Shown one piece after another: positions 226-33,051 of a stretch of 64,000 nt of DNA. The notes under the pieces are model-generated. The model saw nothing but the letters and a program-made list of their open reading frames with translations, was not told the DNA's origin and searched no databases. Position 1 is the first letter of the stretch; each line of letters opens with the position of its first letter. This DNA comes from Planctomycetaceae bacterium. Its GTDB lineage: Bacteria > Planctomycetota > Planctomycetia > Pirellulales > Pirellulaceae. The stretch lies in NCBI GenBank assembly GCA_020638975.1, contig JACKHN010000020.1, forward strand, positions 1-64,000. The letters are read 5' to 3'. The translations under genes were made by a program, and so were the position numbers.

Positions 226-1371
226 CTATCGTGAATCGGGAACAAGCAGCGTCGACAAGACTTGAGCGTAGACACGATGCCCGAAATCATTGGGATGATT
301 GACGCCATTGCCGGTCAAATCCCAGTCGTGCTTGCGTTTAAGAAACTCCGTCCAGATGCCGGTCATGTCAGCCAAGGCGATGCCCGGCTGGCAGAGGCTG
401 GCGAGCGCATCACGATATTGCGGAAAGACTTCGTGCTTCAAGCGAATCCAATCGCGATTCCCCAACATCGAAGCGATCAATATGAATTCAGCATCGGGAA
501 GCGTTTCGCGAATGTTGTCGATCATCGCTTGTGTGTTGGCTTTATACTCGTCGGCAGACCTCCCCGCAGAATCGTTCATTCCAAAAGCAAGGATTACCAA
601 ATTCGGCTCGTGCTCGACAACCTTGTCGACCATCGTCAGCCCCCAAGGCGTCGACGTCCCGCCCACGGACAGGTTCGTTAAAGTGACTTTGCTTTCGTAG
701 CTGGCCTCCAAGTGTTCACGCAGCAATTCGGGATAAGCTGGCTGAAAGGGGATGCCCTCGGCCCAGCCCGAGGCGTTGCAACCCGTCGAAATGCTGTCGC
801 CCAGCAACACGATCGACAACGCCTCTTTCCGCCGCAGTCGCTCGATTGCGTGAGGCAATGCGGCCGCATCAAACTCTGGCGTGTCGCCGCTCCATTCTTC
901 GGCGGGATGTCGGTAAGTGATGCAGGTTTGCATCTCGTGGTACTCGAGCTTCGCACCAAAGAAGATCTCACCGTTTCCGTCGCGGTGAGTGAGCTCGTAC
1001 TTTTGCGACTTCGCGGGTCGTCTCAGATCTTGCGGTACCTTCGAGACGATGCGTGAACCTACCGGCAAGACGATCTCACATGAACCCGCTCGCCACACGT
1101 AATCGCGCCCTTCCTCGTACGTCTCATCGCCCGCCGAATTGCAGACCGTCAACACTTGTGTAATCGGGAACAGCACCGACGCCCTCCCCTCCCCCGTCGT
1201 CTCGTCGCGAATGAACAGAACCGACTCGCCTTCGACCGTGTCGCCTTGCCAGAAAGGTCGCAGGAGAGCGGGCCGATACACCCAATCGCGCTGCGTCGGC
1301 TCTTCGGCAACGCAATGTTGCAACCACATTGCGCAGATGATGATTGTGAAAAGATAGCGGTAGCAATTCAT
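226..1371 (-). CDS. Secreted SGNH/GDSL-family hydrolase (lipase/esterase-like)
   Basis: The C-terminal half carries a GDS(I) block (LLGDSISTG) and the SGNH signatures GMNDS and NHPNDFGH. I moved the start to the MNCYRYLFTIIICAMWLQHCVA signal peptide (cat at 1369-1371). The track ORF extends to 1884 but that extra part overlaps the aquaporin gene and has no support. Confidence 0.6.
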   Translation of the reverse strand: MNCYRYLFTIIICAMWLQHCVAEEPTQRDWVYRPALLRPFWQGDTVEGESVLFIRDETTGEGRASVLFPITQVLTVCNSAGDETYEEGRDYVWRAGSCEIVLPVGSRIVSKVPQDLRRPAKSQKYELTHRDGNGEIFFGAKLEYHEMQTCITYRHPAEEWSGDTPEFDAAALPHAIERLRRKEALSIVLLGDSISTGCNASGWAEGIPFQPAYPELLREHLEASYESKVTLTNLSVGGTSTPWGLTMVDKVVEHEPNLVILAFGMNDSAGRSADEYKANTQAMIDNIRETLPDAEFILIASMLGNRDWIRLKHEVFPQYRDALASLCQPGIALADMTGIWTEFLKRKHDWDLTGNGVNHPNDFGHRVYAQVLSTLLVPDSR

Positions 1372-20753: not shown

Positions 20754-21257
20754 CTAAACCAATGTCTTCGTCATGAACGCCGCATCTGCTCCAGTCGGGC
20801 TGCCACAGCCAAAGCCAACACGTTCATAAAGCCGCCGAGCGTTCACGTTCTCGCTGTGGACTTCCAGTGTAAGCTTACAGCAGCCGAGGCGGATGGCTTC
20901 CTGTTCCACAGCCGCGAGCAGCTTTGTACCCAGACCTTGCCCACGATAGTCTCGATGGACGGTCAGGTCGTGGACATTTAGCAGCGGAAGCGCTCGAAAC
21001 GTCGAATAACCCAGAAAACAAATCGCGAGGCCCACCGGGCGTGTACCGTCGAGAGCCAGGAAATAGCGACCATTCGACTGCGCGGCGAGCCCCGGGATCA
21101 GCCGCCTCTGGGCCGTTTCATCCAACGGTCGTCCACCTTGAAGCGGCTCGCAGGCATACATGTTCAGCAAATCAAGAATGCCATTATGGTGCAAATCGTC
21201 AGCAAGATCTGCTTGAATGATGACAGGCGGACTCACGATGTTCTCACAATACGCCAT
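20754..21257 (-). CDS. GNAT-family N-acetyltransferase
   Basis: VHRDYRGQGLGTKLL...ARRLYERVGF contains the acetyl-CoA binding motif A (R/QxxGxG/A). Start trimmed to MAYCEN (cat at 21255-21257). Confidence 0.75.
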   Translation of the reverse strand: MAYCENIVSPPVIIQADLADDLHHNGILDLLNMYACEPLQGGRPLDETAQRRLIPGLAAQSNGRYFLALDGTRPVGLAICFLGYSTFRALPLLNVHDLTVHRDYRGQGLGTKLLAAVEQEAIRLGCCKLTLEVHSENVNARRLYERVGFGCGSPTGADAAFMTKTLV

Positions 21258-21269
21258 GCTTCTCCGGCA

Positions 21270-21428
21270 GACTAGTCCTGCGTTACAGCTGCTAATTAGG
21301 GTGAATGAAGTGAGCCACTGGCCGTAAGGCCCCGGGCGCGCCCTGCATTCCTCGTCGCCCGACCGCTTACGCGTCACGGCTCACGAAACGGGCAAACCCT
21401 AAAATCAAGGTGTAACGCTGCACTCGTG
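21270..21428. mobile_element. MITE-like ~160-bp element, copy A, with ~18-bp terminal inverted repeats
   Basis: About 90% identical to the reverse complement of 25528-25686. Its termini (a)gactagtcctgcgttaca and tgtaacgctgcactcgtg are inverted repeats of each other. It encodes no protein. Confidence 0.6.
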
Positions 21429-21453
21429 TTACGTTTCAGCTCGATTTTAGGAT

Positions 21454-21515
21454 TAGCCGTTTGGGCGCTAGCCACGGTTCGTTCGTGCCAACCGGGGCTA
21501 ACGCCCAAACGGCTA
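21454..21515. repeat. 20-nt-arm inverted repeat hairpin in the copy-A-proximal spacer
   Basis: tagccgtttgggcgctagcc...ggctaacgcccaaacggcta has a single mismatch. It lies just downstream of the DAC gene stop at 21552 and is terminator-like. Confidence 0.5.
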
Positions 21516-21551
21516 GTGTCTACAACCCTAGTTCTTAGCAGTCACAAAGCA

Positions 21552-22487
21552 CTAGTCACCTGTCGGCGAAGGAGGTTCGTACTCGAAGTCCTTCCATTTC
21601 ATCGCACGGCGGAAAGGTTCAATACGGAGAATAACTTCGCCATCCTTGAACAACCGGACCGTACCATTCGATTCACTGACAACGACCGCAATCGCATTGG
21701 TACTCTTGCTGATCGCGGCAGCTGCCCAGTGACGTGATCCCAGACCTTTGGACAACGTCAGGTTGACGTGATCGGCATCCACGATCTGACACGCCTTTTC
21801 CACCGTCCCATCCGGCGCGACGATAAACGCTCCGTCGAGCGGGGCGATTTCTTTGACCGCTTCGCGAACGCGGGGATCCGGCAGCGAGCGTTCCTTGCGA
21901 CCATAGCCCTTGACGGGGTCGAAGCCTGCCGGATGGCTGAGCGCGATGACTTTACGGGTGTCGCCGACGACAAACATCGTCCCGACCGGCTTGCCTTCGC
22001 GGCCTTCGCGTCCGATTTCGACGGCCAGATCGACGACGACCTTCAGAGTCTCGAGCGGGACGCTTGTTTCGATTTGCCGTAAGTCGCGAGCGGTCAGTCG
22101 CCCGAGGTGCTCGTCGAGTCGGATGAAGCTGATCGAGTCCATCGAATCGGCTTCGAAACCGCTGTAGACCGCAATGATCTCCGAATTGGGCTCTAGAATC
22201 TCGTTCGCCACACCTTCGAGCAGCGCGTGTGTCAACTTCTCGAAAACAGGCGAATCGTGCATTCCCAGCACGATGGTCTCAAGGCCAGCTTCCTTAGCAC
22301 CTTCCAATGCTTCGGCCGTGTCTGCGGCAACCAGAATCTTCTCGTGTCCGGCGCGTTCGCTGAGCTCCTTCCAGTCGGTCGGACCATCGAGGATCACAAG
22401 CAAAACATCAGCATCCACCTGCTTACTCAGGCTGACGGCTAAACCGTAGATCGAGGCGAATTGCTCGTTGAAACGTTGCTGTTTCAT
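21552..22487 (-). CDS. Diadenylate cyclase (DAC/DisA_N) domain protein with a distinct ~150-aa N-terminal domain (DacZ-like architecture)
   Basis: The C-terminal DAC motifs match the c-di-AMP synthase signature (DGA...GTRH...RHRAA...VVSEE): DGAFIVAPDG, KGLGSRHWAAAAIS and AIAVVVSESNGTVRLF. Confidence 0.8.
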   Translation of the reverse strand: MKQQRFNEQFASIYGLAVSLSKQVDADVLLVILDGPTDWKELSERAGHEKILVAADTAEALEGAKEAGLETIVLGMHDSPVFEKLTHALLEGVANEILEPNSEIIAVYSGFEADSMDSISFIRLDEHLGRLTARDLRQIETSVPLETLKVVVDLAVEIGREGREGKPVGTMFVVGDTRKVIALSHPAGFDPVKGYGRKERSLPDPRVREAVKEIAPLDGAFIVAPDGTVEKACQIVDADHVNLTLSKGLGSRHWAAAAISKSTNAIAVVVSESNGTVRLFKDGEVILRIEPFRRAMKWKDFEYEPPSPTGD

Positions 22488-22609
22488 TCAGCCGAAACTG
22501 CCAAAACGGGAGGGGCGGGCGAGAGAACAGAGCGACGTTCACATAGTAAAGCGTTTCGCCAACTAGAGCAACGGCCCTCGCCACTAGCATTTAAGCGACG
22601 AGATTCCGC

Positions 22610-23317
22610 CTAAAACCAACTCATCGACCGAAGACGCTCGGCGATCGTCGGCGGTTCTGGAAGAGCTGGCGAGCGACCTTCAACGAAGTCGCGCCAAGCC
22701 GGAACGTTGTCGCCGTAGTCCTGCCCCGAAACGGATTTCAAGGACTGAACCGCCCGATGCTGGAGTGCTGGATCCTTGTCGTTCAAAGCAACAGCAAGTG
22801 CTTGGAGTGATTGTTGGTCTTTGAACTTAGCGAGTTGCGCAGTCGCAGCCAGTCGTACGTCCAGATCCGAGTCACTGCTGACGGCTTGGGAAAGCACGTC
22901 AAGTGCTTCGGGACCGCCGCGACGTCCCCAGGCTCGACAGGCGGCAATGCGGACATCTGTACTCTCGTCACTCATCGCAAGCTGCAGCGTCGGGATCGTT
23001 TCGGGTGCCGGGAACTCAGCGAGCGCCAACGTCGCCTCTGCGCGCAACACGGTGTTCGTCGAGTTCTGAACAATGTCTGCGAGCGTCGGAATCACTCGGC
23101 GTTGCTCTTGGGGTGACAGTCCGGTCGGATTCTCGCGAATCGCTCGCAATTCGGCCAACTGAGTGTGGAACGTCGGCCCGGCTTGCTCGTCCTTTTCCCA
23201 TTGGTTGCGGTAATACGGATTCATTGCGGTCAATCCACCGAATGGACCATCGGCGCATCCGCTAGCGGCCATTCCGACGAGTAGAACGATCAGAGCTTTA
23301 GCTGGGGAAAATCGCAT
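22610..23317 (-). CDS. HEAT-repeat (PBS-lyase-like) lipoprotein
   Basis: Lipoprotein signal MRFSPAKALIVLLVGMAASGC, then repeated xxDxDVRxAAxxAL units (VRIAACRAWG, VRLAATAQLA, ALQHRAVQSL). Confidence 0.6.
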   Translation of the reverse strand: MRFSPAKALIVLLVGMAASGCADGPFGGLTAMNPYYRNQWEKDEQAGPTFHTQLAELRAIRENPTGLSPQEQRRVIPTLADIVQNSTNTVLRAEATLALAEFPAPETIPTLQLAMSDESTDVRIAACRAWGRRGGPEALDVLSQAVSSDSDLDVRLAATAQLAKFKDQQSLQALAVALNDKDPALQHRAVQSLKSVSGQDYGDNVPAWRDFVEGRSPALPEPPTIAERLRSMSWF

Positions 23318-23593
23318 TGCCACCAAGGAGTTTCCAAATTTACGTGCGAGTGCCGGTGCTGAATAGCGGCGGGACTGTAGCAAATCCACATCCAGGCTGC
23401 TATACGGATCTGCGTCGATCCGCGATTAATCGTGGTGACTCTTAGATTCATCGGCGATTATTGCGATCCGGCGTTTTGGAGTACATGCTGTGAATTGACC
23501 AAACTTTTGCTAAAACCAACGAACACCCGATAGATAACTGCATTTTAAGCTGTCCAGCTCGTTCGGCTGACAGCGCAATTCGGAGGCAACAGA

Positions 23594-24112
23594 GTGGTCG
23601 ATCCAACAAAACACGATGACGCGCGGGGCTTGGTCGAGTCGATTCTTCGTAAGATCCCAGGCTTTCGCGGCTATCTTGAGCAGGAATACCGCCGAGAAAG
23701 CGATCATATCGCCCGCATGTGGCTCGCAGATCGATTGGAAGCCTGCAAGGCCGGTGTCGGTCGCTATCAGCGAAACTTGCTGGATGCTCGTAAGATCGAC
23801 TACCTGGACGATTGTGAGCGAGTCCGAACGCGACTCGATACGCTGGTTTCGCGAGTTCGTGGCGCGATGCGAGGCTACAGCGGCGTGTTCGACTTTGTTC
23901 GTGTCGATGAAGCTCTGCTCGACCAGGTTTATGACGTGGATGTGGTCCTCGTCGACGAGGCCGAGTGGCTGCTCAAAGCGGTTGACGAGCTTCTGGTTCC
24001 CGAAAACGATCCGAAGACCGCGATTCCCGAGTTTCTCAAACACGTCGAAGAACTGCATCGCCAGTTCGATCGGCGCGGCGAGTTGCTTCAGGGATTGGGC
24101 ACGGATAAATAG
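23594..24112 (+). CDS. Hypothetical alpha-helical protein (GTG start)
   Basis: Good GGAGG Shine-Dalgarno 9 nt upstream of GTG 23594. Genome-typical codon usage. The opposite-strand 206-aa ORF is judged a shadow. Confidence 0.5.
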
Positions 24113-24165
24113 GCCGCGTCCACGCTTCATTCAGACAGCACGTTAGCACAGTAAGGAAAGTTGCC

Positions 24166-25533
24166 ATGGGGATGCGTTTAGAAGTCATTCAGTATTTCGA
24201 CGACTCGAATCGCTCGTTGGTCCATCGAGTCCCCCCGCAAGGCTCAGCCGATATCAAACTCGGCGCTCAGTTGATCGTGCAGGAGAATCAAGAGGCTGTC
24301 TTCTTTCGCGATGGCAAGGCGATGGATCGCTTCGGGCCAGGACGCCACACGCTGACCACAATGAACGTGCCGGTGATAACGCGGATTTTGACAATTCCGT
24401 GGGAGAAGTCACCCTTCCAGGCTCAGGTCTACTTCGTTGGCAAGCAGACCTTTCTCGATCAAAAATGGGGCACTCGGCAACCGATCATTGTCCGCGACAA
24501 CGACTTTGGCATGGTTCGACTACGAAGTTTCGGCAAATTCTCGATGCGAGTCGCCGATTCGGAAGTATTGCTGAATACGCTGGTCGGCACACAAGGTAAG
24601 TACACGACCGACGAAGTTACCTCCTACCTCAAAGATCTGATCGTCTCGCGAATGACGGACGTGTTGGGTACGCTTGCGATTAGCATGCTCGATTTACCCT
24701 CGCGATTCGACGAGGTCGCTGCCGCGACGCGTGTGCAAGTTGGTGAAGACTTCAGCAAGTACGGATTAGAGCTGGTTGATTTCTTCATCAACTCGATCAC
24801 GCCACCTGAGGAAGTCCAAAAGGCGATCGATGCTCGCAGCAGCATGGGTGCGATCGGCGATCTCCGCTCGTTTACGATGTATCAAGCGGCCAACAGCATG
24901 TCCAAGATGGCAGAGAACGGCGGTGGTGGTACGGGGAGCGGCGCGATGGGGATTGGAATGGGCGCTGGGTTCGGCATGATGATGCCGCAAATGATTCGGG
25001 ACGCAATGCAGGGTCTTCAACCTGCACCCGCTGCCACTTCGTCGCCCGCCGCCGGTTTGCCAGGAGCGTCAGTGACTTCACCCACTGCAAGCGGACTGAA
25101 TTTTGATGCATTGTCGTCTTCATCAGCAGACCCGAAGCAGCTCGTGCGAAGCGTCCTGCAGACGATTCAAGGCGCGATGATCAACGAACAAGGCGACACG
25201 TGGCAAGTGACGATTCCGCTAGGCTCGCTACGAAAGCAAACAGTCGGGATCGACTTCAGTCGTCGAGATGACGAGGGCCACGCAATGATTGCTTATTCCG
25301 CGACATGCGGCCCAGCAACGCCCCAAAATGCGCTGCACTTACTCCGTTTCAACGAACAAATGGTCCATGGTGCCTTTGCCGTCCGCAATACGGCGTCCGG
25401 CGACATGGTCGTCGTCCAAGCCAATCAACTCGCAGATACGGCGGATCCCTTGGAAATCACCCGGCTCGTAACATCCGTGGCCTGGCAGGCCGATCGTGCG
25501 GAAGAGAAGTTGACGGGCGCAGATCAGCACTAG
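24166..25533 (+). CDS. SPFH/Band-7 (Band_7_1, YdjI-like) protein with Gly/Met-rich linker and YbjN-like C-terminal domain
   Basis: N-terminus [55 protein letters not shown]...[19 protein letters not shown] matches the YdjI-type SPFH family. [24 protein letters not shown] linker follows, then a C-terminal ~150 aa with a YbjN/T3SS-chaperone-like pattern. An AAGGAAAG Shine-Dalgarno is present. Confidence 0.75.
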
Positions 25534-25686
25534 TGCTGCGTTACACCTTGATTTTAGGGTTTGCCCGTTTCGTGAGCCGTGACGCGTAAGCGGTCGGGCG
25601 GCGAGGAATGCAGGGCGCGCACGGGGCCTTACGGCCAGCGGCTCACTTCATTCACCCTAATCCTTAGCTGTAACGCGGCACTAGTC
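25528..25686. mobile_element. MITE-like ~160-bp element, copy B (inverted relative to copy A)
   Basis: Termini cactagtgctgcgttaca and tgtaacgcggcactagtc are perfect 18-nt inverted repeats apart from one mismatch. The interior is ~90% identical to the reverse complement of copy A. The TIR overlaps the TAG stop of the SPFH gene. Confidence 0.6.
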
Positions 25687-25999
25687 ATCTGATTTGAGGC
25701 TCTCGAAATCGTCCAGGCGGACCACGGTTGCGGCATATGCCGCGATCGGAGGTGCGACGATTTGACACATGCCTCCCTCCCCGCTCCCCTCACATCAAGG
25801 CGGCGGTATCTGCTAGAATTGCCACCAGCCGAGTAGGTATCTGCCCCACCTACTAGGTTAGGCCGGTCGAGGAATTCTGCCCCTCCTCGATCGGCTGTTT
25901 TCTTATTTTAAGAAAATATCCGGAATTCCGACCCGGTTTTGGGCGCGTTTTGCAATAGATACTTATGAGTACTTGTATCTGCTTGCGCACAGAGATCCC

Positions 26000-26581
26000 A
26001 TGCCCAATATCCGTGTCTTGCTGATCGAAGATGATCCGACCTATGCGCGTCTGCTCCAGCGAATGCTCGCGTTATCGCCGGTCGGCTTCGATGTCACCAT
26101 TGCTGACCGGCTGACGACCGCGTTGAGCGAACTCTATAAAGGCCGTTTCAATCTCATCCTGACGGACCTGAACTTGCCCGATATTCGAGGCCTCGACACC
26201 GTCGAAGCTCTCCGATCGGTCGAGTCGTCGCTTCCCATCATCGTGCTGACCGGGTTGGAGGACGTCGCCCTGGAGAAGCAAGCCGTCGCAGCCGGTGCCC
26301 AACTATGTCTCAGGAAATCAGAGGTTGATACGAAACGACTACTCGACGCGATGCACCAAGCAGTTCGCATTTCGCGTGAGACGAAGCCGCTAATCAAGGA
26401 TCGACAGGTCGACCGACTGCTCGCTGACTTGGAGGAGAACATCATCGCCGTCAAGAACGCCATCGCGATTCTCGACAACCAGCTACGCGACTCGCAACAG
26501 CAGGACGCAGTTCATACGATTCGATCACACATCGGAAAGATGCAAGACAAGATCGGAGACTACCGACGTCTCGGACGCTGA
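26000..26581 (+). CDS. Single-domain response regulator (REC) with C-terminal coiled-coil
   Basis: IRVLLIEDDP...LILTDLNLPD...IIVLTG receiver motifs with the phospho-Asp in TDLNLPD. Start trimmed to MPNIRV (ATG 26000). Confidence 0.75.
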   Translation: MPNIRVLLIEDDPTYARLLQRMLALSPVGFDVTIADRLTTALSELYKGRFNLILTDLNLPDIRGLDTVEALRSVESSLPIIVLTGLEDVALEKQAVAAGAQLCLRKSEVDTKRLLDAMHQAVRISRETKPLIKDRQVDRLLADLEENIIAVKNAIAILDNQLRDSQQQDAVHTIRSHIGKMQDKIGDYRRLGR

Positions 26582-26618
26582 TGTGCCCTGCCGAAAACGA
26601 CAAATCGGAAACTAGGTA

Positions 26619-27662
26619 CTATTCACGACGAGTCACCAGCTTCACGAGATGCGCCGCAATCTGGTCGATGGGCAGCACGGTGTCGGCCAATCCTTCCGCA
26701 ACGACAACGCCGGGCATGCCATAGACAACGCTTGTTGCTTCGTCTTGGGCAATTGTATGCCCTCCCTGCTCCCGCAACGCACGTAAACCATCTGCACCGT
26801 CGCGTCCCATCCCCGTGAGCACAATGCCGACGACTTTGCTCCCGAATGCGCGCGAGCAAGACTCGAACAAATGCGTTGCCGAGGGCCGAAACCCATCAAC
26901 AGGCGGCGTGGCTGAAAGCACCACACGACCGGTGCTTGAAACTCCTAAATGCTTGGCCTGGGGAGCCACATAAACGGTGCCCCGCTGCAAGACCTCACGA
27001 TCTTCGGCAATCTTCACCGCGGGCGGGACGCTTAAGTTGAGCCATGAGGCGAAGCCTTCCGCAAATCCATCCGCGATATGTTGTACTAGCAGAACGGGCA
27101 CGGGAAAGTCAGCCGGCAATCCGCTTAACACCTGATGCAACGCCGGTGGTCCACCGGTCGACGCGGCAATCGCCACCGCCTGAACTCGCAGCCGCATGCT
27201 GTGAGGTGTGGCTGGCCCCAGAATCTGCCTGACGTCATCAGCATGCCTCCGATGACGCATCACCCGGACCTCTGCCATTGTCTTGACCGACTCGATCAGT
27301 TCCCGAGCATCGCGGTCAAAACTCGGCGAGTCAGGGCCAGAGGGTTTGAGTTGTAACGTCAATGCACCGACGTGCAGCGACTGCATCGCCCACTCGACAT
27401 CGTTGACAGCCGAGCTCGCCGAGACGATCACGATCGGCGTCGGACACTCGATCATGATCTCTTTCGTCGCTTCGAATCCGTTCATCACGGGCATATGGAT
27501 GTCCATCGTGATGATATCGGGGCAGTACTTCTTCGCGAACTCAACCGCCTCCTGCCCGTTCTTTGCGACCGCCACAACTTGGATATCCGGGTCGCTACTA
27601 AGGATCTGCTCCAGTAGTTCGCGAGCCACTGCGGAATCGTCGACGATGAGTACTTTTAACAC
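26619..27662 (-). CDS. cheB: Chemotaxis response regulator protein-glutamate methylesterase CheB
   Basis: N-terminal REC domain (VLIVDDSAVARE...ITMDIHMPVMNG). C-terminal CheB methylesterase (IAASTGGPPAL...LVQHIADGF...GMGRDGADGLRALREQGGHTIAQDEATSVVYGMPG). Confidence 0.9.
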   Translation of the reverse strand: MLKVLIVDDSAVARELLEQILSSDPDIQVVAVAKNGQEAVEFAKKYCPDIITMDIHMPVMNGFEATKEIMIECPTPIVIVSASSAVNDVEWAMQSLHVGALTLQLKPSGPDSPSFDRDARELIESVKTMAEVRVMRHRRHADDVRQILGPATPHSMRLRVQAVAIAASTGGPPALHQVLSGLPADFPVPVLLVQHIADGFAEGFASWLNLSVPPAVKIAEDREVLQRGTVYVAPQAKHLGVSSTGRVVLSATPPVDGFRPSATHLFESCSRAFGSKVVGIVLTGMGRDGADGLRALREQGGHTIAQDEATSVVYGMPGVVVAEGLADTVLPIDQIAAHLVKLVTRRE

Positions 27663-27698
27663 GAGCGTCTTATCCGATCCAATTCTGCTTGGCTCTGA

Positions 27699-30041
27699 TT
27701 AAATCAACTGTTCGATGCTTTCTAACAGATTGCTTTGATCGAAACCGCTTTTTACCAGATAGACGCTGGCCCCAACGCGTATGCCTCGCGTCTTGTCTTC
27801 GTCCGACTCGCGCGCCGTGACCAGAATCACAGGCAGTTCGCCGAGCCTTTTCGATTTGCGAATCTTATCAGTCAGCGTAAATCCGTCCATACGTGGCATA
27901 TCAATGTCGCTCACAACAAGATCCACCTCCGTGTGACTAAGTAATTCCCATGCCTGGGCACCATCTGCCGCCGAGGTGACTTCGTAGCCAGCGGCTTCGA
28001 GGATGCTCTTCATGAGCGTCCGCGTCGTCACGGAATCGTCCACAGCCAACACCCGTTTCCGCTGTTGAGTTCTCGCTTGCGGTCTCGCAACGACGAGCGG
28101 ACGAGCCGTCTGAGTTCCTAATGCCGTCCCGACCACGTTCTGCACATTCAATACCAACGCCACACTGCCCGACGGCAACAAAGTCGCGCCCGATATATGG
28201 CGGGCATACCGAATGCGAGTCCCGAGGCTCTTGACGAGCACCTCCTGTTCGGCAAGTAAGTCGTCAACGACCAGTGCCACACGCTGGTCGCCGGCGCCAA
28301 TGACTACCGCGAGCATCTTCGAGCTATCTGAGTTTCCCTCATACCTGCCCATCTCCAGCACTTCGGAAAGTACCGTCACCGGCGTGGGCGTTCCGCCAAG
28401 AAGGAGGACATCACGTCCGCTTACTTTGGCGATACTGCCAGGATCAAAGCGAACCAATTGCTGAACCGATGACGTCGAGAGCGCGTAAGTCTGTTGTGCA
28501 GCCAGCACTAACAAGCAGCGAACCGTCGTTAGCGTTAGTGGAACATTGATAGTAAACTTCGTCCCGACACCCTCTTGAAATTCCACGTCCACCGAGCCGT
28601 GTAATGCCTGCACGCCGCTCGCAACAACATCCAAACCAACCCCCCGTCCCGATACGTCCGTAACTGTCGACGCGGTCGAAAATCCCGGCAGAAATACCAA
28701 TCGGGCTTGCTCGGACGGATCGTTTGGCACAGCGATTCCACGTTGTTGTGCGTGCTTGCAAATTCCTCTTAGATCGAATCCGCGACCATCATCTGCGACA
28801 GCGACTTCGATCTGCCCTCCTCGCAACTCTGCAGATACCGTCACGGACGCTTGTGACGGTTTGCCAGTCTTCGAGCGTTCCACAGACAACTCGATTCCAT
28901 GGTCAATGGCATTCCTCACAAGATGCAGGACAGGATCCTTCAGCCCCTCGAGGACGGAGCGATCGACTTCGACATCCTCTCCCTTGATCACAAGGCGAAC
29001 ATCCTTTCCCGTCACCTGAGCAAGATCGCGAACTGCGCGTTCGAGCCCACCGCATGCCTCGGCGAACGGCAGCATGCGGACGCGGTAAACTTCATCGTTC
29101 AACGCGTCGCAGGTATGCCGCAGCACGCGTGCGTCTGCTGCGACGTTCGCGGCGAGACGATCGGCGGCCTTTTCTATCTTTGCCAATTGGTCTCCGGTGC
29201 GTTCCAGAATCGCCACGGTTCGTCGCGGCAATTTACTCTTAATGGCAGCGGCAAGCCACGCATCGTCTGGCTCGGTCAGCAGTTTGTGTAAAGGCTTGGC
29301 CCATTCGTTCCAGTCGCCTTGCAAATCGGACAGCGACTCGCTCAATTCGCTCGATTCGATAGTCCGTTGGTCAATCCGCTGGCGAGCGACAAGCAACTCG
29401 CCATTTTGTGAAAGCAATGCGTCCAACTTTTCGGCAGCCACTCGAACCGAGGCACTACTTGCCGCAGATGGCGTGTGCACGGCTTCCACCGGTGAATCAA
29501 CTTCGGAAGCTGACGTCTGCGCCGGAGACTCGGTGGAAGGTGCACTCTCTTCGATTGCGTGTGGCGGGACGATGTCGACCGCTGACTGCGTCGCAACAGC
29601 CTTCTCGTCTAAGACGCCAACGATACCGGCGGAACCTTTGTTCTTCGCCGCATTTCGCAACTCTGGGATTAGGGTGTGTAATGAAGCGTCTTCGAACGGC
29701 TGGTCATCACGAAGCCGCATTCCAACTTCTTGGATTGCATCGGCTACTTTAAAGAACAACGAAAATAAATCGGGAGTGAGTTCGCGCCGGCCATCCCGCA
29801 CCTCGACCAAGATGTCCTCCATGATGTGACAAGCATCCTCGATGATTTCGATATTCACCGCCCGCGATGCGCCTTTGAGACTGTGTGCCGAACGGAACAA
29901 CACCTTCATCACGTCGGCACGCTGCTCGGTGGGTAATCCGCGTTCCAACGTAAGCAAATCGCGATTCATTGCTTCAACGTGTTCATGAAGCTCTTCCAGG
30001 TAAGTCGCCATCAAGCGTTTTGCGAGTTCTTGTCTATCCAT
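27699..30041 (-). CDS. cheA: Hybrid chemotaxis histidine kinase CheA with C-terminal CheY-like receiver
   Basis: HPt domain (HSLKGASRAVN), HATPase_c (NAIDHGIE...DDGRGFD...GRGVGLDVV), a CheW-like domain, and a C-terminal REC (VLAVDDSVTTR...VVSDIDMPRMDG). Confidence 0.9.
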   Translation of the reverse strand: MDRQELAKRLMATYLEELHEHVEAMNRDLLTLERGLPTEQRADVMKVLFRSAHSLKGASRAVNIEIIEDACHIMEDILVEVRDGRRELTPDLFSLFFKVADAIQEVGMRLRDDQPFEDASLHTLIPELRNAAKNKGSAGIVGVLDEKAVATQSAVDIVPPHAIEESAPSTESPAQTSASEVDSPVEAVHTPSAASSASVRVAAEKLDALLSQNGELLVARQRIDQRTIESSELSESLSDLQGDWNEWAKPLHKLLTEPDDAWLAAAIKSKLPRRTVAILERTGDQLAKIEKAADRLAANVAADARVLRHTCDALNDEVYRVRMLPFAEACGGLERAVRDLAQVTGKDVRLVIKGEDVEVDRSVLEGLKDPVLHLVRNAIDHGIELSVERSKTGKPSQASVTVSAELRGGQIEVAVADDGRGFDLRGICKHAQQRGIAVPNDPSEQARLVFLPGFSTASTVTDVSGRGVGLDVVASGVQALHGSVDVEFQEGVGTKFTINVPLTLTTVRCLLVLAAQQTYALSTSSVQQLVRFDPGSIAKVSGRDVLLLGGTPTPVTVLSEVLEMGRYEGNSDSSKMLAVVIGAGDQRVALVVDDLLAEQEVLVKSLGTRIRYARHISGATLLPSGSVALVLNVQNVVGTALGTQTARPLVVARPQARTQQRKRVLAVDDSVTTRTLMKSILEAAGYEVTSAADGAQAWELLSHTEVDLVVSDIDMPRMDGFTLTDKIRKSKRLGELPVILVTARESDEDKTRGIRVGASVYLVKSGFDQSNLLESIEQLI

Positions 30042-30510
30042 GAGGAATCACCTTTCGTACATCAATCAGACTGGCAAGAAGCTCGAATCGAGATGACCGC
30101 GCAACGACTTGCCTCACTCTGACCTTGACGTGTTCATGGTCATCGAACTGCTGTAGACGCCATGTGCAAATCAGCATGGACTGATAGACATGCATCGGTC
30201 GCAGATTGGACTCGACGGCGAAAGGGTAATCAGATTCGTCAACGCTGACAACAGTTTCGCTGAGACGATTTTCATTCCATACTTCGATGATGCGATCCAG
30301 CGAACGGTTAAGCAGTTCCGGTTTTGCATAGACATGTGTCGGTGAAATCCCATCCGGAAAGTTGACTGAGTCCAGCGGGATTGCTGCCAAAGGGTCGCTC
30401 AAAAATGAGAGGCCCCGAACAACGAGTGGAACATTAGCCGAGACGACGCCAAATACGACGACGACAACAAACGCTCGGAAGCCGGTGGCTAGTCGCCGCA
30501 TCGCACTCAA
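30034..30510 (-). CDS. Hypothetical small protein with N-terminal signal/TM, embedded in che operon
   Basis: MRRLATGFRAFVVVVVFGVVSA is a hydrophobic N-terminus. There are 4-8 nt overlaps with both the cheW stop and the cheA start, implying translational coupling. Confidence 0.45.
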   Translation of the reverse strand: MSAMRRLATGFRAFVVVVVFGVVSANVPLVVRGLSFLSDPLAAIPLDSVNFPDGISPTHVYAKPELLNRSLDRIIEVWNENRLSETVVSVDESDYPFAVESNLRPMHVYQSMLICTWRLQQFDDHEHVKVRVRQVVARSSRFELLASLIDVRKVIPHG

Positions 30511-31124
30511 TTCCTCTCGTCCATAAACAATCTTTCGTCGGATAACAGCATCTCGCCATCTAAGATCAACATGCCATCTGCCGTCACGCCACGTAGGTAA
30601 TCACGACTCGCACCATGCACGCAGCCTGGCACCTCGACAACTTCGTCGATACGCAAAGTGGTAACTTCATGAACTTCGTCGACCAACATGCCGAACTCCT
30701 GCCGCCCCTTGCCCAGGATGATGATCGGTGGCTGCGTTTCGGGCGCAGTGGTGATGTCGAAAAACGTTCGCAGGTCCAACACCGAGAGCACCGCCCCTCG
30801 CATGTTCGTAACACCCAACAGAAACTCCGGCCCTCCTGGCACGGGTGTAATGTCGCTCACTCGATAAACTTCGTGGATGAATTTCGTCTCAATCGCCAAA
30901 CGTTCCGTTGCCATCCGCACGATCATGACTTCAAGAATCTCGTCCGAGTTGGGAGCCGTATCGGGAACCTTTGCGAGTGTCTTCGCACGCTCGGCCATGA
31001 CGACTTCGGCCTGCGTCTCCGTCAGCGATTCACTTTGGCTAGACGCTTCCATCAGACGTAGGAAACGCTGCTTAATAGCCTCCCAATCGAATTGCCCCGA
31101 CTGCGGCTTGTCCGATGTTGTCAT
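30507..31124 (-). CDS. cheW: CheW-like coupling protein (with ~60-aa N-terminal extension)
   Basis: FLLGVTNMRGAVLSVLDLRTFF is the CheW core motif. It has a 4-nt overlap with cheR. Confidence 0.8.
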   Translation of the reverse strand: MTTSDKPQSGQFDWEAIKQRFLRLMEASSQSESLTETQAEVVMAERAKTLAKVPDTAPNSDEILEVMIVRMATERLAIETKFIHEVYRVSDITPVPGGPEFLLGVTNMRGAVLSVLDLRTFFDITTAPETQPPIIILGKGRQEFGMLVDEVHEVTTLRIDEVVEVPGCVHGASRDYLRGVTADGMLILDGEMLLSDERLFMDERN

Positions 31125-32590
31125 GATGTCGCCCCCAGTGCGGCATCAATCGCTCGCAAATGGTTCGTGGCCGCTCTCGCTAGTAGCCGCGACGTTTCGT
31201 GTTCGGACAAGGGAACTATTTCATCGGGAGCTCGAGCCGCTGCTAAATCCCGGGCATTTCGGAAAGCTCGCCTTGCCCCATCAAGCGTCCCACGTCGCTG
31301 CAAGATCGAACCGAGCAGAAAGTGCGCGAGGGCCAGCGAACGATCAAGAAACACGACTCGCTGCACCGCCTGCACCGCCTCGACATCCAAGTTCATCTCC
31401 ATCAGCAACACGGCGTGCAGATAATGCAGTTCCGCCGAAAGCGGATGACGGGTTGCGAACAACGCGCATTTTCGGATCGCTGCCTCGGTGCTTAAGTTTG
31501 CCAACGATTTCACATGGATAATGCACGCCGCCGGCTCATTGGGATGCGATTCCGAAAGCTCCACCGCCCGGGCATAATCACCTCGGGCAAGAGCCGCGTG
31601 AGCTTCGTCCTTGTCCCATCGAGTATCTCGATTGATTGCCGCCGTCGACTGAGAATCGCGATTTGCTTGCGATATATTTCCCGAGTTTGCTCCGTACAAA
31701 CCGTCGCGTGGTTCGTTTGTCTCCCATGCCGCCTCCGGAGCCACAACCGCTTCTGTCTTCGCAGCTGTGGGCTTGCGATAAAAGACTCCGAAGTCTGTGA
31801 CGGTCGTCTCGAAAGGAGCGAAATCTCCAACGGGAGGATCACCGGATGCTGTAATAAACCAACCACCGTCGGCAAGGCACTGAAAGAACCGTTGTGCAAC
31901 TTCACGGATCGTCGAGCGACTCAGATAGATCAAAACGTTTCGACAGAGAATCAAATCCATCGCTTCGGTGCTCGTCACATGCGACGGATAGACATCCATT
32001 GCCAGATTCAGGAACTCAAAGCGAACCATACGCCGAATTTTTTCATCGACGTAATAGATCCCTCTGTCGAATCTCAAGTACTCCTTCGCCTCGGCTTGTA
32101 ACTCTCCCCGCAACGACCAGTCGCGATAAGTGGCTTGGCGTGCTTTTGACAATGCTTCCGATGAAATGTCGGTGGCCAAGATCTCGCACTGACTTGCCAG
32201 TCCTTGCTTATGGCACAGCATCGCAAGCGAATAGGGTTCTTCTCCCGACGCGCACGCCGCACTCCAAATTCGCAACTTTTGCCAACCGCCCTTTCGTCGC
32301 AAGATTTCGGGAAGGATCTCGCGGCGAATCCCCTCGAACTGAGATGCCTCGCGAAAAAAGTAAGTCTCACCGACGGTTAACTCGACAATCAAGTTCTCTA
32401 ATGCCTCGACGTCATGCACCAGCAACTTGGCGTACGCCGACGACTCCGCTACACCGCTTCGCTTCATCGCGTTCGCAATTCCTATCTTGGTTGCTTCGCG
32501 TTGAGCCGCTCGAAAGGCGAGTCCAGTCCGCGCCCCTAAGATCGAAAGGATGGATTCGTAGGCTTCGTCCGTCCAGTTGATTTCCGTCAC
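31121..32590 (-). CDS. cheR: Chemotaxis protein methyltransferase CheR fused to C-terminal TPR repeats
   Basis: ETYFFRE, LRIWSAACASGEEPYSLAML and NVLIYL match CheR SAM-MTase motifs. The C-terminal ~200 aa are TPR-like helical repeats. Confidence 0.85.
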   Translation of the reverse strand: MTEINWTDEAYESILSILGARTGLAFRAAQREATKIGIANAMKRSGVAESSAYAKLLVHDVEALENLIVELTVGETYFFREASQFEGIRREILPEILRRKGGWQKLRIWSAACASGEEPYSLAMLCHKQGLASQCEILATDISSEALSKARQATYRDWSLRGELQAEAKEYLRFDRGIYYVDEKIRRMVRFEFLNLAMDVYPSHVTSTEAMDLILCRNVLIYLSRSTIREVAQRFFQCLADGGWFITASGDPPVGDFAPFETTVTDFGVFYRKPTAAKTEAVVAPEAAWETNEPRDGLYGANSGNISQANRDSQSTAAINRDTRWDKDEAHAALARGDYARAVELSESHPNEPAACIIHVKSLANLSTEAAIRKCALFATRHPLSAELHYLHAVLLMEMNLDVEAVQAVQRVVFLDRSLALAHFLLGSILQRRGTLDGARRAFRNARDLAAARAPDEIVPLSEHETSRLLARAATNHLRAIDAALGATS

Positions 32591-33051
32591 GTCGATGGTC
32601 CCTCCGTTTGGGACTCGACCAGAGCCGCAGCGCTAAGCGTACCTTCCATCGCCGCCAGTCTCTCGATATCGATTACATGCACGAGGCCGTCACTCGTTTT
32701 CGCCACGAAGTCAATCAGCCCAGTCTGCGGCAAAACCGTTGACGCGGCCTGCACATCGCATCCTGCTAACTGGACGAGATCGATCGCCACGTCAACGTGC
32801 AATGCGAGCGTCCGCTCGTCCGTAGCAACGACGATGAAATAGTCGGTGTGCCGAATCTTTCGAGAGTCGAGTGAAAACAACCGGCGCACATCAATAACCG
32901 GCAGAATCCGTCCTCGCAGATTCAACAGCCCCTCGACGATGTCGGGTGCTTGCGGGAGCGGCGACAATTTGACCGCGCGTACGACTTCCCGGACGTTGCG
33001 AAGCTGAACGCCGAATCGCTTATCTCCAACATCGAACAGCAGAGCTTCCAC
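32587..33051 (-). CDS. cheW: CheW coupling protein
   Basis: FGVQLRNVREVVRAVKLSPLPQAPDIVEGLLNLRGRILPVIDVRRLF is canonical CheW. Confidence 0.8.
   Translation of the reverse strand: MEALLFDVGDKRFGVQLRNVREVVRAVKLSPLPQAPDIVEGLLNLRGRILPVIDVRRLFSLDSRKIRHTDYFIVVATDERTLALHVDVAIDLVQLAGCDVQAASTVLPQTGLIDFVAKTSDGLVHVIDIERLAAMEGTLSAAALVESQTEGPST

Follow-up and report, generated by a model that had tools for sequence, protein, structure and literature searches.

A DacZ-type diadenylate cyclase unit beside a SamI-like SPFH unit in a planctomycete genome: two divergent gene pairs in a probably vertically inherited neighbourhood

Diadenylate cyclases of the DacZ/CdaZ family, which occur in archaea and some bacteria, are the closest described relatives of the enzyme considered here, and the DacZ of Haloferax volcanii is essential and tied to osmoregulation (PMC6741144; PMC10249747). 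In some haloarchaea, an MscS channel gene shares an operon with dacZ (PMC6741144), and DacZ is also on record in Verrucomicrobiota, a phylum of the Planctomycetes-Verrucomicrobia-Chlamydiae (PVC) group (PMC12901056). A second point of comparison is the SPFH protein YdjI/SamI of Bacillus subtilis, which is brought to the membrane by YdjG/H and itself recruits PspA (PMC8581546; bioRxiv 10.64898/2026.02.06.704340). Here, we describe a block of four genes in a 64,000-nt stretch of DNA (hereafter the window; positions 1 to 64,000 of contig JACKHN010000020.1, assembly GCA_020638975.1, Planctomycetaceae bacterium), which encode a DacZ-type synthase of cyclic di-AMP (c-di-AMP), a HEAT-repeat lipoprotein, a protein predicted to be all-helical (HYP) and a soluble SPFH protein. 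To our knowledge, c-di-AMP signalling in Planctomycetes has apparently been the subject of no experimental study, and we know of no account of how DacZ-type cyclases are regulated, archaea included.

We consider it probable that the block is a stretch of ordinary Pirellulales chromosome, inherited vertically and with housekeeping functions, made up of two separable, divergent units: DacZ with its lipoprotein, and the SamI-like SPFH protein with its helical partner. An earlier note on this DNA, made from the letters alone, had described a cassette of four genes. The four open reading frames (ORFs) and their coordinates were confirmed (Table 1), but ORF analysis of the window resolved them into two divergent pairs and not a single co-directional cassette. 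The GC content of the block equals that of its flanks.

Table 1. Features of the four-gene block and its borders (window coordinates; strand left empty where none applies).
Feature	Position	Strand	Size or basis
DacZ/CdaZ-type diadenylate cyclase	21552-22487	-	311 aa
DacZ_P (PK_C-like) domain	22092-22463, residues 9-132	-	Pfam E 8.5e-40, 135.7 bits (cut-off 27.4 bits)
DAC (DisA_N, PF02457) domain	21636-22013, residues 159-284	-	Pfam E 1.5e-20, 73.4 bits (cut-off 27 bits)
HEAT-repeat lipoprotein	ORF 22610-23389, probable gene 22610-23317	-	259 aa as ORF, 235 aa from M25
Promoter-like element upstream of HEAT	23362-23409	-	consensus TCTGGC-N~18-TTTGCTAnAGTCCCGCC across loci
TTTGCTACA, HEAT-side copy of TTTGCTAMA	23376-23384	-	exact 9-mer match
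TTTGCTAAA, HYP-side copy, extended -10-like	23506-23514	+	about 88 nt upstream of the helical-protein gene
HYP, all-helical protein (predicted), first gene of the SPFH operon	23594-24112	+	172 aa
Soluble SPFH (Band_7_1) protein	24166-25533	+	455 aa
Band_7_1 (PF13421) SPFH domain	24238-24849, residues 25-228	+	Pfam E 9e-65, 218.6 bits (cut-off 24 bits)
Gly/Met-rich segment	24940-24996, residues ~259-277	+	homologue alignment
Pro/Ala-rich linker	after the Gly/Met segment	+	variable in homologues
T3SS-chaperone/YbjN-fold domain (predicted; T3SS, type III secretion system)	~25132-25530	+	about 135 residues, conserved
Left 159-nt MITE-like copy (MITE, miniature inverted-repeat transposable element)	21270-21428		GNAT-DacZ intergenic region
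Second, 143-nt unit	21420-21562		repeat families D2, D3, I2
Right 159-nt MITE-like copy	25528-25686		inverted relative to the left copy; begins inside the SPFH stop codon (CAC TAG)

The conservation of the neighbourhood was followed from both sides. In a survey anchored on DacZ, the window's proteins were mapped by tblastn in 80 species genomes, 56 of whose loci had at least 3 kb upstream of DacZ; a survey anchored on SPFH covered 80 metagenome loci, DacZ being counted over the 27 with at least 4 kb of flank. The HEAT gene lies upstream of DacZ on the same strand in 40 of the 80 loci (33/56 with enough flank), HYP stands directly upstream of SPFH in 53/65, and HEAT adjoins SPFH divergently in 28/48. 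SPFH and HYP were found near DacZ in 17/56 and 15/56 loci, respectively, and DacZ in 8/27 of the SPFH-anchored loci; counted from either anchor, about 30% of loci have SPFH within reach of DacZ. The linkage is thus layered, with a tight HYP-SPFH operon, a frequent HEAT-DacZ unit and the HEAT gene as the hinge between them. Full four-gene loci include metagenome-assembled genomes (MAGs) labelled Pirellulaceae and Thermoguttaceae. The five-gene order including the GNAT neighbour of the window is kept in loci L001 (86% SPFH identity) and L002 (74%), while the GNAT gene itself is kept in 7 of 73 loci, and in L003 (68% SPFH identity) SPFH stands with neither DacZ nor HEAT nearby. Block proteins are 60-96% identical across families. 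The co-localisation that the earlier note had seen in one genome therefore recurs in others, as L001, L002 and both surveys illustrate. A co-occurrence of about 30% would also fit slowly decaying ancestral synteny, each pair is found on its own as well, and both units clearly function apart; the linkage of the SPFH and DacZ units is suggestive, not obligatory.

The earlier note had also called the block a repeat-bracketed module. The inverted repeat is real, with 159-nt arms that are 93% complementary, but a role of the repeats as module borders was not supported, since relatives with the same gene order lack them. Each copy has its own terminal inverted repeats of about 31 nt (CTAGTGCnGCGTTACA...ATTAGGGT), and the terminal repeat gave four matches with 0-2 mismatches against 0 expected. 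The termini of the 143-nt unit show 79% similarity to those of the 159-nt copies; its interior differs, with a 26-nt palindrome at 21454-21515, and at its outer end the unit overlaps the stop codon of DacZ. For DacZ and SPFH alike, the TAG stop codon falls within the CTAG terminus of an element or abuts it. On the left side, the longest ORF of the GNAT gene (20754-21377, minus strand) enters the MITE-like copy by 120 nt; judging by the genes of relatives, which encode 146-161 aa, translation probably begins at the Met near 21257.

Outside same-strain contigs (L004, L005), about 1.8 Mb of related loci yielded no copy of the 159-nt element. A fuzzy search with the terminal 16-mer returned, as a single possible trace, a look-alike directly after the SPFH stop codon in L001/L145, the other isolated matches occurring at the rate of shuffled sequence. 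In this closest relative (L001/L145), DNA similarity covers 21552-25548 and the left-flank genes, the GNAT-DacZ spacer is unrelated and 160 nt long, and in L001 synteny stops exactly at the right MITE-like copy. Three other same-strain contigs with an identical SPFH gene end 4-77 nt past its stop codon; contig ends of this kind are expected at a repeat with several copies. The 159-nt repeats are probably recent intergenic insertions of a MITE-like element that is specific to this lineage and lacking in relatives with the same gene order.

The repeats bear directly on the proposal that the block is a mobile or anti-phage cassette, in which they delimit and move the four genes and the DAC protein acts as signal enzyme in the manner of CBASS (anti-phage signalling that relies on cyclic oligonucleotides). 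The inverted repeat does bracket exactly these four genes, and synteny with the closest relative does stop at the right copy, but L001 and L145 have the same order and left flank, and L002 and L007 the four-gene order, all without the element, and at least 17 species keep an SPFH-DacZ block that lacks it. DacZ gave a weak PADLOC match to the diadenylate cyclase of a candidate system (E 1.6e-8), and in H. volcanii c-di-AMP made by DacZ is able to set off a TIR-SAVED effector (bioRxiv 10.1101/2025.06.19.660554). The matches in PADLOC-DB v2 were generic ones to the DAC domain and to HEAT repeats, however, with none for HYP or SPFH, and no transposase, integrase or effector gene is present in the block. 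The GC content is that of the flanks, and 60-96% identity across families is typical of core genes. With generic matches only, uniform composition, conserved vertical synteny and repeats missing from relatives, the mobile or defence reading was rejected as very improbable, and with it the earlier suggestion of a defence-like module.

The DacZ gene itself is highly conserved and has the look of a housekeeping gene. Pfam placed a DacZ_P domain before the DAC domain, and the best NCBIfam match of the cyclase was haloarchaeal DacZ (NF041371; 145.2 bits, under the 430-bit equivalog cut-off), in keeping with the DacZ-like layout and unusual N-terminal domain described earlier. Judged by these profiles, the cyclase shares the haloarchaeal DacZ architecture and belongs to a distinct bacterial clade. 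The canonical DGA, GSRH, RHxAA and VVSE motifs that had been read from the translation proved intact in an alignment to Listeria monocytogenes CdaA (6hvn), with DGA at 218-220, GSRHWAA at 250-256 and then VVSE, and DGA, GSRHWAA and VVSE are invariant across 24 homologues. Where the classical motif reads RHR, Trp stands in place of the second Arg (RHW; nt 21726-21740, residues 250-254). With Trp at this position in each of the 24 planctomycete homologues aligned, this appears to be a clade-specific active-site substitution. No transmembrane (TM) segment was found in the cyclase, the maximum 19-residue Kyte-Doolittle hydropathy being 1.45. At 69% identity or more, at least 120 clusters are listed, and all of the listed ones have the DacZ_P and DAC architecture. 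Among the first 600 pattern matches in a species-level collection of genomes, no fewer than 577 encode a DacZ relative. DacZ is most likely the constitutive housekeeping cyclase of the lineage, making c-di-AMP. Rfam gave no match at E<=1 in 21000-26200 and none at gathering score across the whole window, and therefore no ydaO-type c-di-AMP riboswitch.

The lipoprotein upstream of DacZ has HEAT_2 repeats (Pfam E 3.6e-24, 85 bits) and a signal peptide with a lipobox (AASG↓C) whose GC is invariant in 41 of 41 aligned homologues, which bears out the earlier call. Its true start is probably M25, at nt 23317, which fits the HEAT genes called in L001 (237 aa) and L002 (235 aa), and the protein is predicted to be extracytoplasmic. 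In Firmicutes, CdaR is an extracytoplasmic partner encoded beside cdaA. By the same logic, the HEAT lipoprotein would be a dedicated partner of DacZ and the SPFH pair a mere neighbour. This view draws on HEAT being the most frequent DacZ neighbour (40/80; 33/56), always upstream and on the same strand, and on a promoter-like element that precedes HEAT and not DacZ, consistent with co-transcription. It also draws on a predicted secreted protein of about 400-500 aa without a Pfam domain, absent from the window, whose gene separates HEAT from DacZ, all on one strand, in 22 of the 80 loci. However, DacZ has no TM segment with which to contact a periplasmic protein, the SPFH unit has just as strong a link to HEAT (28/48), and HEAT-like genes adjoin SPFH where DacZ is absent (L100, L109, L120). 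We regard a dedicated HEAT-DacZ partnership as doubtful.

Promoter-like elements stand in the divergent intergenic region between the two units. Exact TTTGCTAMA occurs at two sites only in the window, both in this region and each facing its own gene. Allowing one mismatch at most, the 9-mer was found upstream of HEAT in 29/72 loci (background 2.3%), of HYP in 11/64, of DacZ in 3/90 and of SPFH in 1/95. In most of the matched HEAT genes the element lies 50-105 nt upstream with conserved flanks in the alignment, and the HYP-side TTTGCTAAA element is conserved in close relatives. The site of a dedicated shared regulator was considered and rejected: in alignment, the motif takes the form of an extended -10 element of sigma70 type, accompanied by a -35-like TCTGGC. 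The consensus TCTGGC-N~18-TTTGCTAnAGTCCCGCC thus reads as a putative sigma70-type promoter with a -35-like and an extended -10 element, and the pattern fits HEAT-DacZ and HYP-SPFH as two transcription units.

The SPFH protein of the second unit has the Band_7_1 domain expected from the YdjI-type assignment of the earlier note and no hydrophobic membrane anchor, no 19-residue Kyte-Doolittle window exceeding 1.23. The Gly/Met-rich segment after it is invariant or nearly so in 25 homologues, while the Pro/Ala linker that follows is hypervariable; with a hydropathy of about 1.0, too low for a TM helix, the segment may interact with the membrane or serve in oligomerisation. Between residue 225 and the C-terminus there is one Cys only (C381), and no zinc-finger or zinc-ribbon motif. 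The C-terminal domain itself scores 17.6-20.1 bits on Pfam YbjN (PF10722), under the 22-bit cut-off, but a precomputed PF10722 match exists on several full-length SPFH homologues, and at E<=0.1 homologous C-terminal domains matched YbjN in 15/17 cases (best 7e-6) and CesT_Tir_1 in 14/17. An AlphaFold2 model (mean predicted local distance difference test, pLDDT, 81.8) has the chaperone topology alpha-beta-beta-beta-alpha-beta-beta-alpha. Model and homologue matches together point to a peptide-binding T3SS-chaperone/YbjN fold, as had been proposed for the C-terminus beyond the Gly/Met-rich linker. PDB sequence searches with the full SPFH protein and with a profile of the C-terminal domain gave nothing meaningful. 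The fusion had been thought uncommon, which did not hold: a search for it returned 5925 matches, the best 120 clusters (90% identity) being 66-100% identical and nearly all full-length, and all named organisms among these 120 are planctomycete. An identical SPFH protein is encoded in GCA_020426725.1.

An exhaustive search placed 323 representative clusters at E<=1e-3 in the family of this C-terminal domain. In the members checked, the domain stands C-terminal to Band_7_1, to a Ser/Thr kinase (P0468, P0492, P0504) or to HEAT repeats (P0438, P0472), and it is nearly stand-alone in proteins of about 185 aa with a short N-terminal extension, such as P0404. Five inspected sequences of different architecture share a similar terminal tail, E-x-[KQS]-L-x-[GP]-x-D-x-[HY]. 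That the domain also occurs on Ser/Thr kinases and HEAT proteins suggests a reusable targeting or peptide-binding module. The fusions with cytoplasmic HEAT-repeat proteins (P0438, P0472) were set aside as Rosetta-stone evidence, their HEAT similarity being at the level of repeats and signal peptides being absent. The giant proteins P0409, which is made of Calx-beta repeats, P0445 and P0469 were likewise set aside as family members, matching only a part of about 50 residues of the domain.

The helical partner, listed as hypothetical in the earlier note, is a real gene, with 175 homologues and a weak match to the NCBIfam LIMLP_15305 family (E 5e-11). No Pfam domain and no hydrophobic stretch of TM grade was found in it; the protein is predicted to be all-helical (pLDDT 80), and a fold search returned generic helical-bundle matches only. 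A 206-aa ORF on the opposite strand (23510-24130, minus) is an antisense shadow of this conserved gene.

A rival explanation takes up the earlier note's idea of a second-messenger and membrane-microdomain stress system. SPFH, the helical partner and the HEAT lipoprotein would form an integrated signalling module that controls DacZ in response to the condition of the membrane or to osmotic state. DacZ might, for instance, be recruited or sequestered by the chaperone-like domain, which would couple c-di-AMP synthesis to envelope stress. SPFH does recur near DacZ (17/56 and 8/27 loci) in MAGs labelled Pirellulaceae and Thermoguttaceae, and in L020, L023, L028, L038 and L086 the block persists although a further gene has come to stand between HEAT and DacZ; the units are nevertheless apart in about 70% of loci, with SPFH alone in L003. 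HEAT is linked to both units and the C-terminal domain of SPFH is of a probable peptide-binding fold, but HEAT is predicted to be extracytoplasmic while DacZ and SPFH are cytoplasmic, and no evidence from fusions or phyletic co-occurrence was found. The common divergent control region holds the only two TTTGCTAMA copies of the window, yet the 9-mer that they share looks like an ordinary promoter element of extended -10 type. The dacZ-MscS operon of haloarchaea offers a precedent (PMC6741144); a literature search found no paper linking c-di-AMP with SPFH, which tells against the module, nor one linking YbjN with SPFH. We hold such a module to be unlikely, and its more specific form, an undescribed envelope-state sensor of Pirellulales in which SPFH, the helical partner and HEAT recruit or regulate DacZ, to be less likely still. 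A functional coupling of c-di-AMP synthesis to an SPFH scaffold is possible, though unlikely.

Several points weigh against our preferred view of an inherited neighbourhood of two separable housekeeping units. Co-localisation in about 30% of loci over family-level divergence is far above chance in genomes of 6-8 Mb, which leaves some likelihood of a functional tie between the two units. The housekeeping role given to DacZ is read from its conservation only. The HEAT protein is predicted to be extracytoplasmic and DacZ cytoplasmic, which leaves their operon pairing without an obvious mechanistic reading. The MITE-like label, finally, comes from a 64-kb window with two full copies and one variant.

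As a working explanation, the HEAT lipoprotein gene and DacZ would form the first unit, probably co-transcribed from the conserved sigma70-like promoter, and the cytoplasmic DacZ would make c-di-AMP at a rate presumably tuned via its N-terminal PK_C-like domain. The helical-protein gene and SPFH would form the second, the latter encoding a soluble protein of YdjI/SamI type with a swapped C-terminal domain. By analogy with B. subtilis SamI, SPFH most likely forms oligomers on the cytoplasmic face of the membrane and recruits a client through its C-terminal domain; the helical protein encoded with it would come first among candidate clients. The two units would be adjacent through old synteny, possibly also through a common bearing on envelope homeostasis, and remain separable; the 159-nt MITE-like elements would have inserted recently at both flanks.

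Other genes near the block were recorded. Directly to its right, 25973-33051 holds a chemotaxis-type cluster in the order response regulator, CheB, CheA, a 158-aa ORF, CheW, CheR and CheW, the 158-aa ORF having no Pfam match. Among DacZ neighbours that the window lacks, a DUF6690 gene lies convergently downstream in 26 of the 80 loci and occurs also near SPFH where DacZ is missing (L089, L100, L103). Extra neighbours of this kind were noted in loci from L008 to L086 (e.g., L015, 8357-9922; L042, 11003-11692).

The present state is an annotation-level advance and not a new system: the class of the DacZ cyclase is known, and the C-terminal variant of the SPFH protein is undescribed but common. 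A lipoprotein and an SPFH scaffold that recur beside DacZ are concrete candidates for its partners. If the envelope-sensor reading were true, it would be the first direct link of SPFH scaffolds to c-di-AMP signalling.

Compared with known systems, the flanking repeats share with MITEs and small palindromic repeats, such as Correia-type elements, a short non-coding unit with terminal inverted repeats of about 31 nt, variants with the same termini and an intergenic position abutting stop codons; unlike dispersed MITEs, two full copies and one variant were seen here within 64 kb. The cyclase agrees with the DacZ/CdaZ (DacY) class, represented by H. volcanii DacZ and Methanocaldococcus jannaschii CdaZ, in having the same PK_C-like N-terminal sensor domain followed by DAC, intact DGA, G[ST]RH and SE motifs and no TM segments. 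It differs from haloarchaeal DacZ in falling below the NCBIfam equivalog cut-off and in carrying RHW instead of RHR, and where some haloarchaeal dacZ genes share an operon with an MscS channel gene, the planctomycete gene has a HEAT lipoprotein partner. The C-terminal domain of the SPFH protein differs from TY-Chap fold proteins (AmyR, 5fr7; Tll0839, 2plg; DUF2170, 8q8o; VecA, 9uwz) in being a domain of larger proteins and not a stand-alone chaperone.

The closest counterpart of the SPFH protein is B. subtilis YdjI/SamI. Both are Band_7_1 SPFH proteins without a membrane anchor, with a low-complexity region before a small C-terminal module, and both are encoded in a small operon with a partner gene. 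In YdjI/SamI the C-terminal module is a zinc finger, whereas the planctomycete protein has in that place the domain of about 135 aa with a predicted T3SS-chaperone/YbjN fold, and its invariant Gly/Met-rich segment is a further difference. The YdjI/SamI gene belongs to the pspA-ydjGHI operon, while the upstream partner here is a soluble helical protein outside any Pfam family. No PspA, YdjG or YdjH homologue was found near the block, and neighbouring genes gave no PspA_IM30 match. On this comparison, the planctomycete protein would be SamI-like in outline and lacks two of the features that mark members of the group. The combination of Band_7_1, a Gly/Met-rich segment and a T3SS-chaperone-fold domain would mean that scaffolds of YdjI/SamI type can swap their C-terminal recruitment module.

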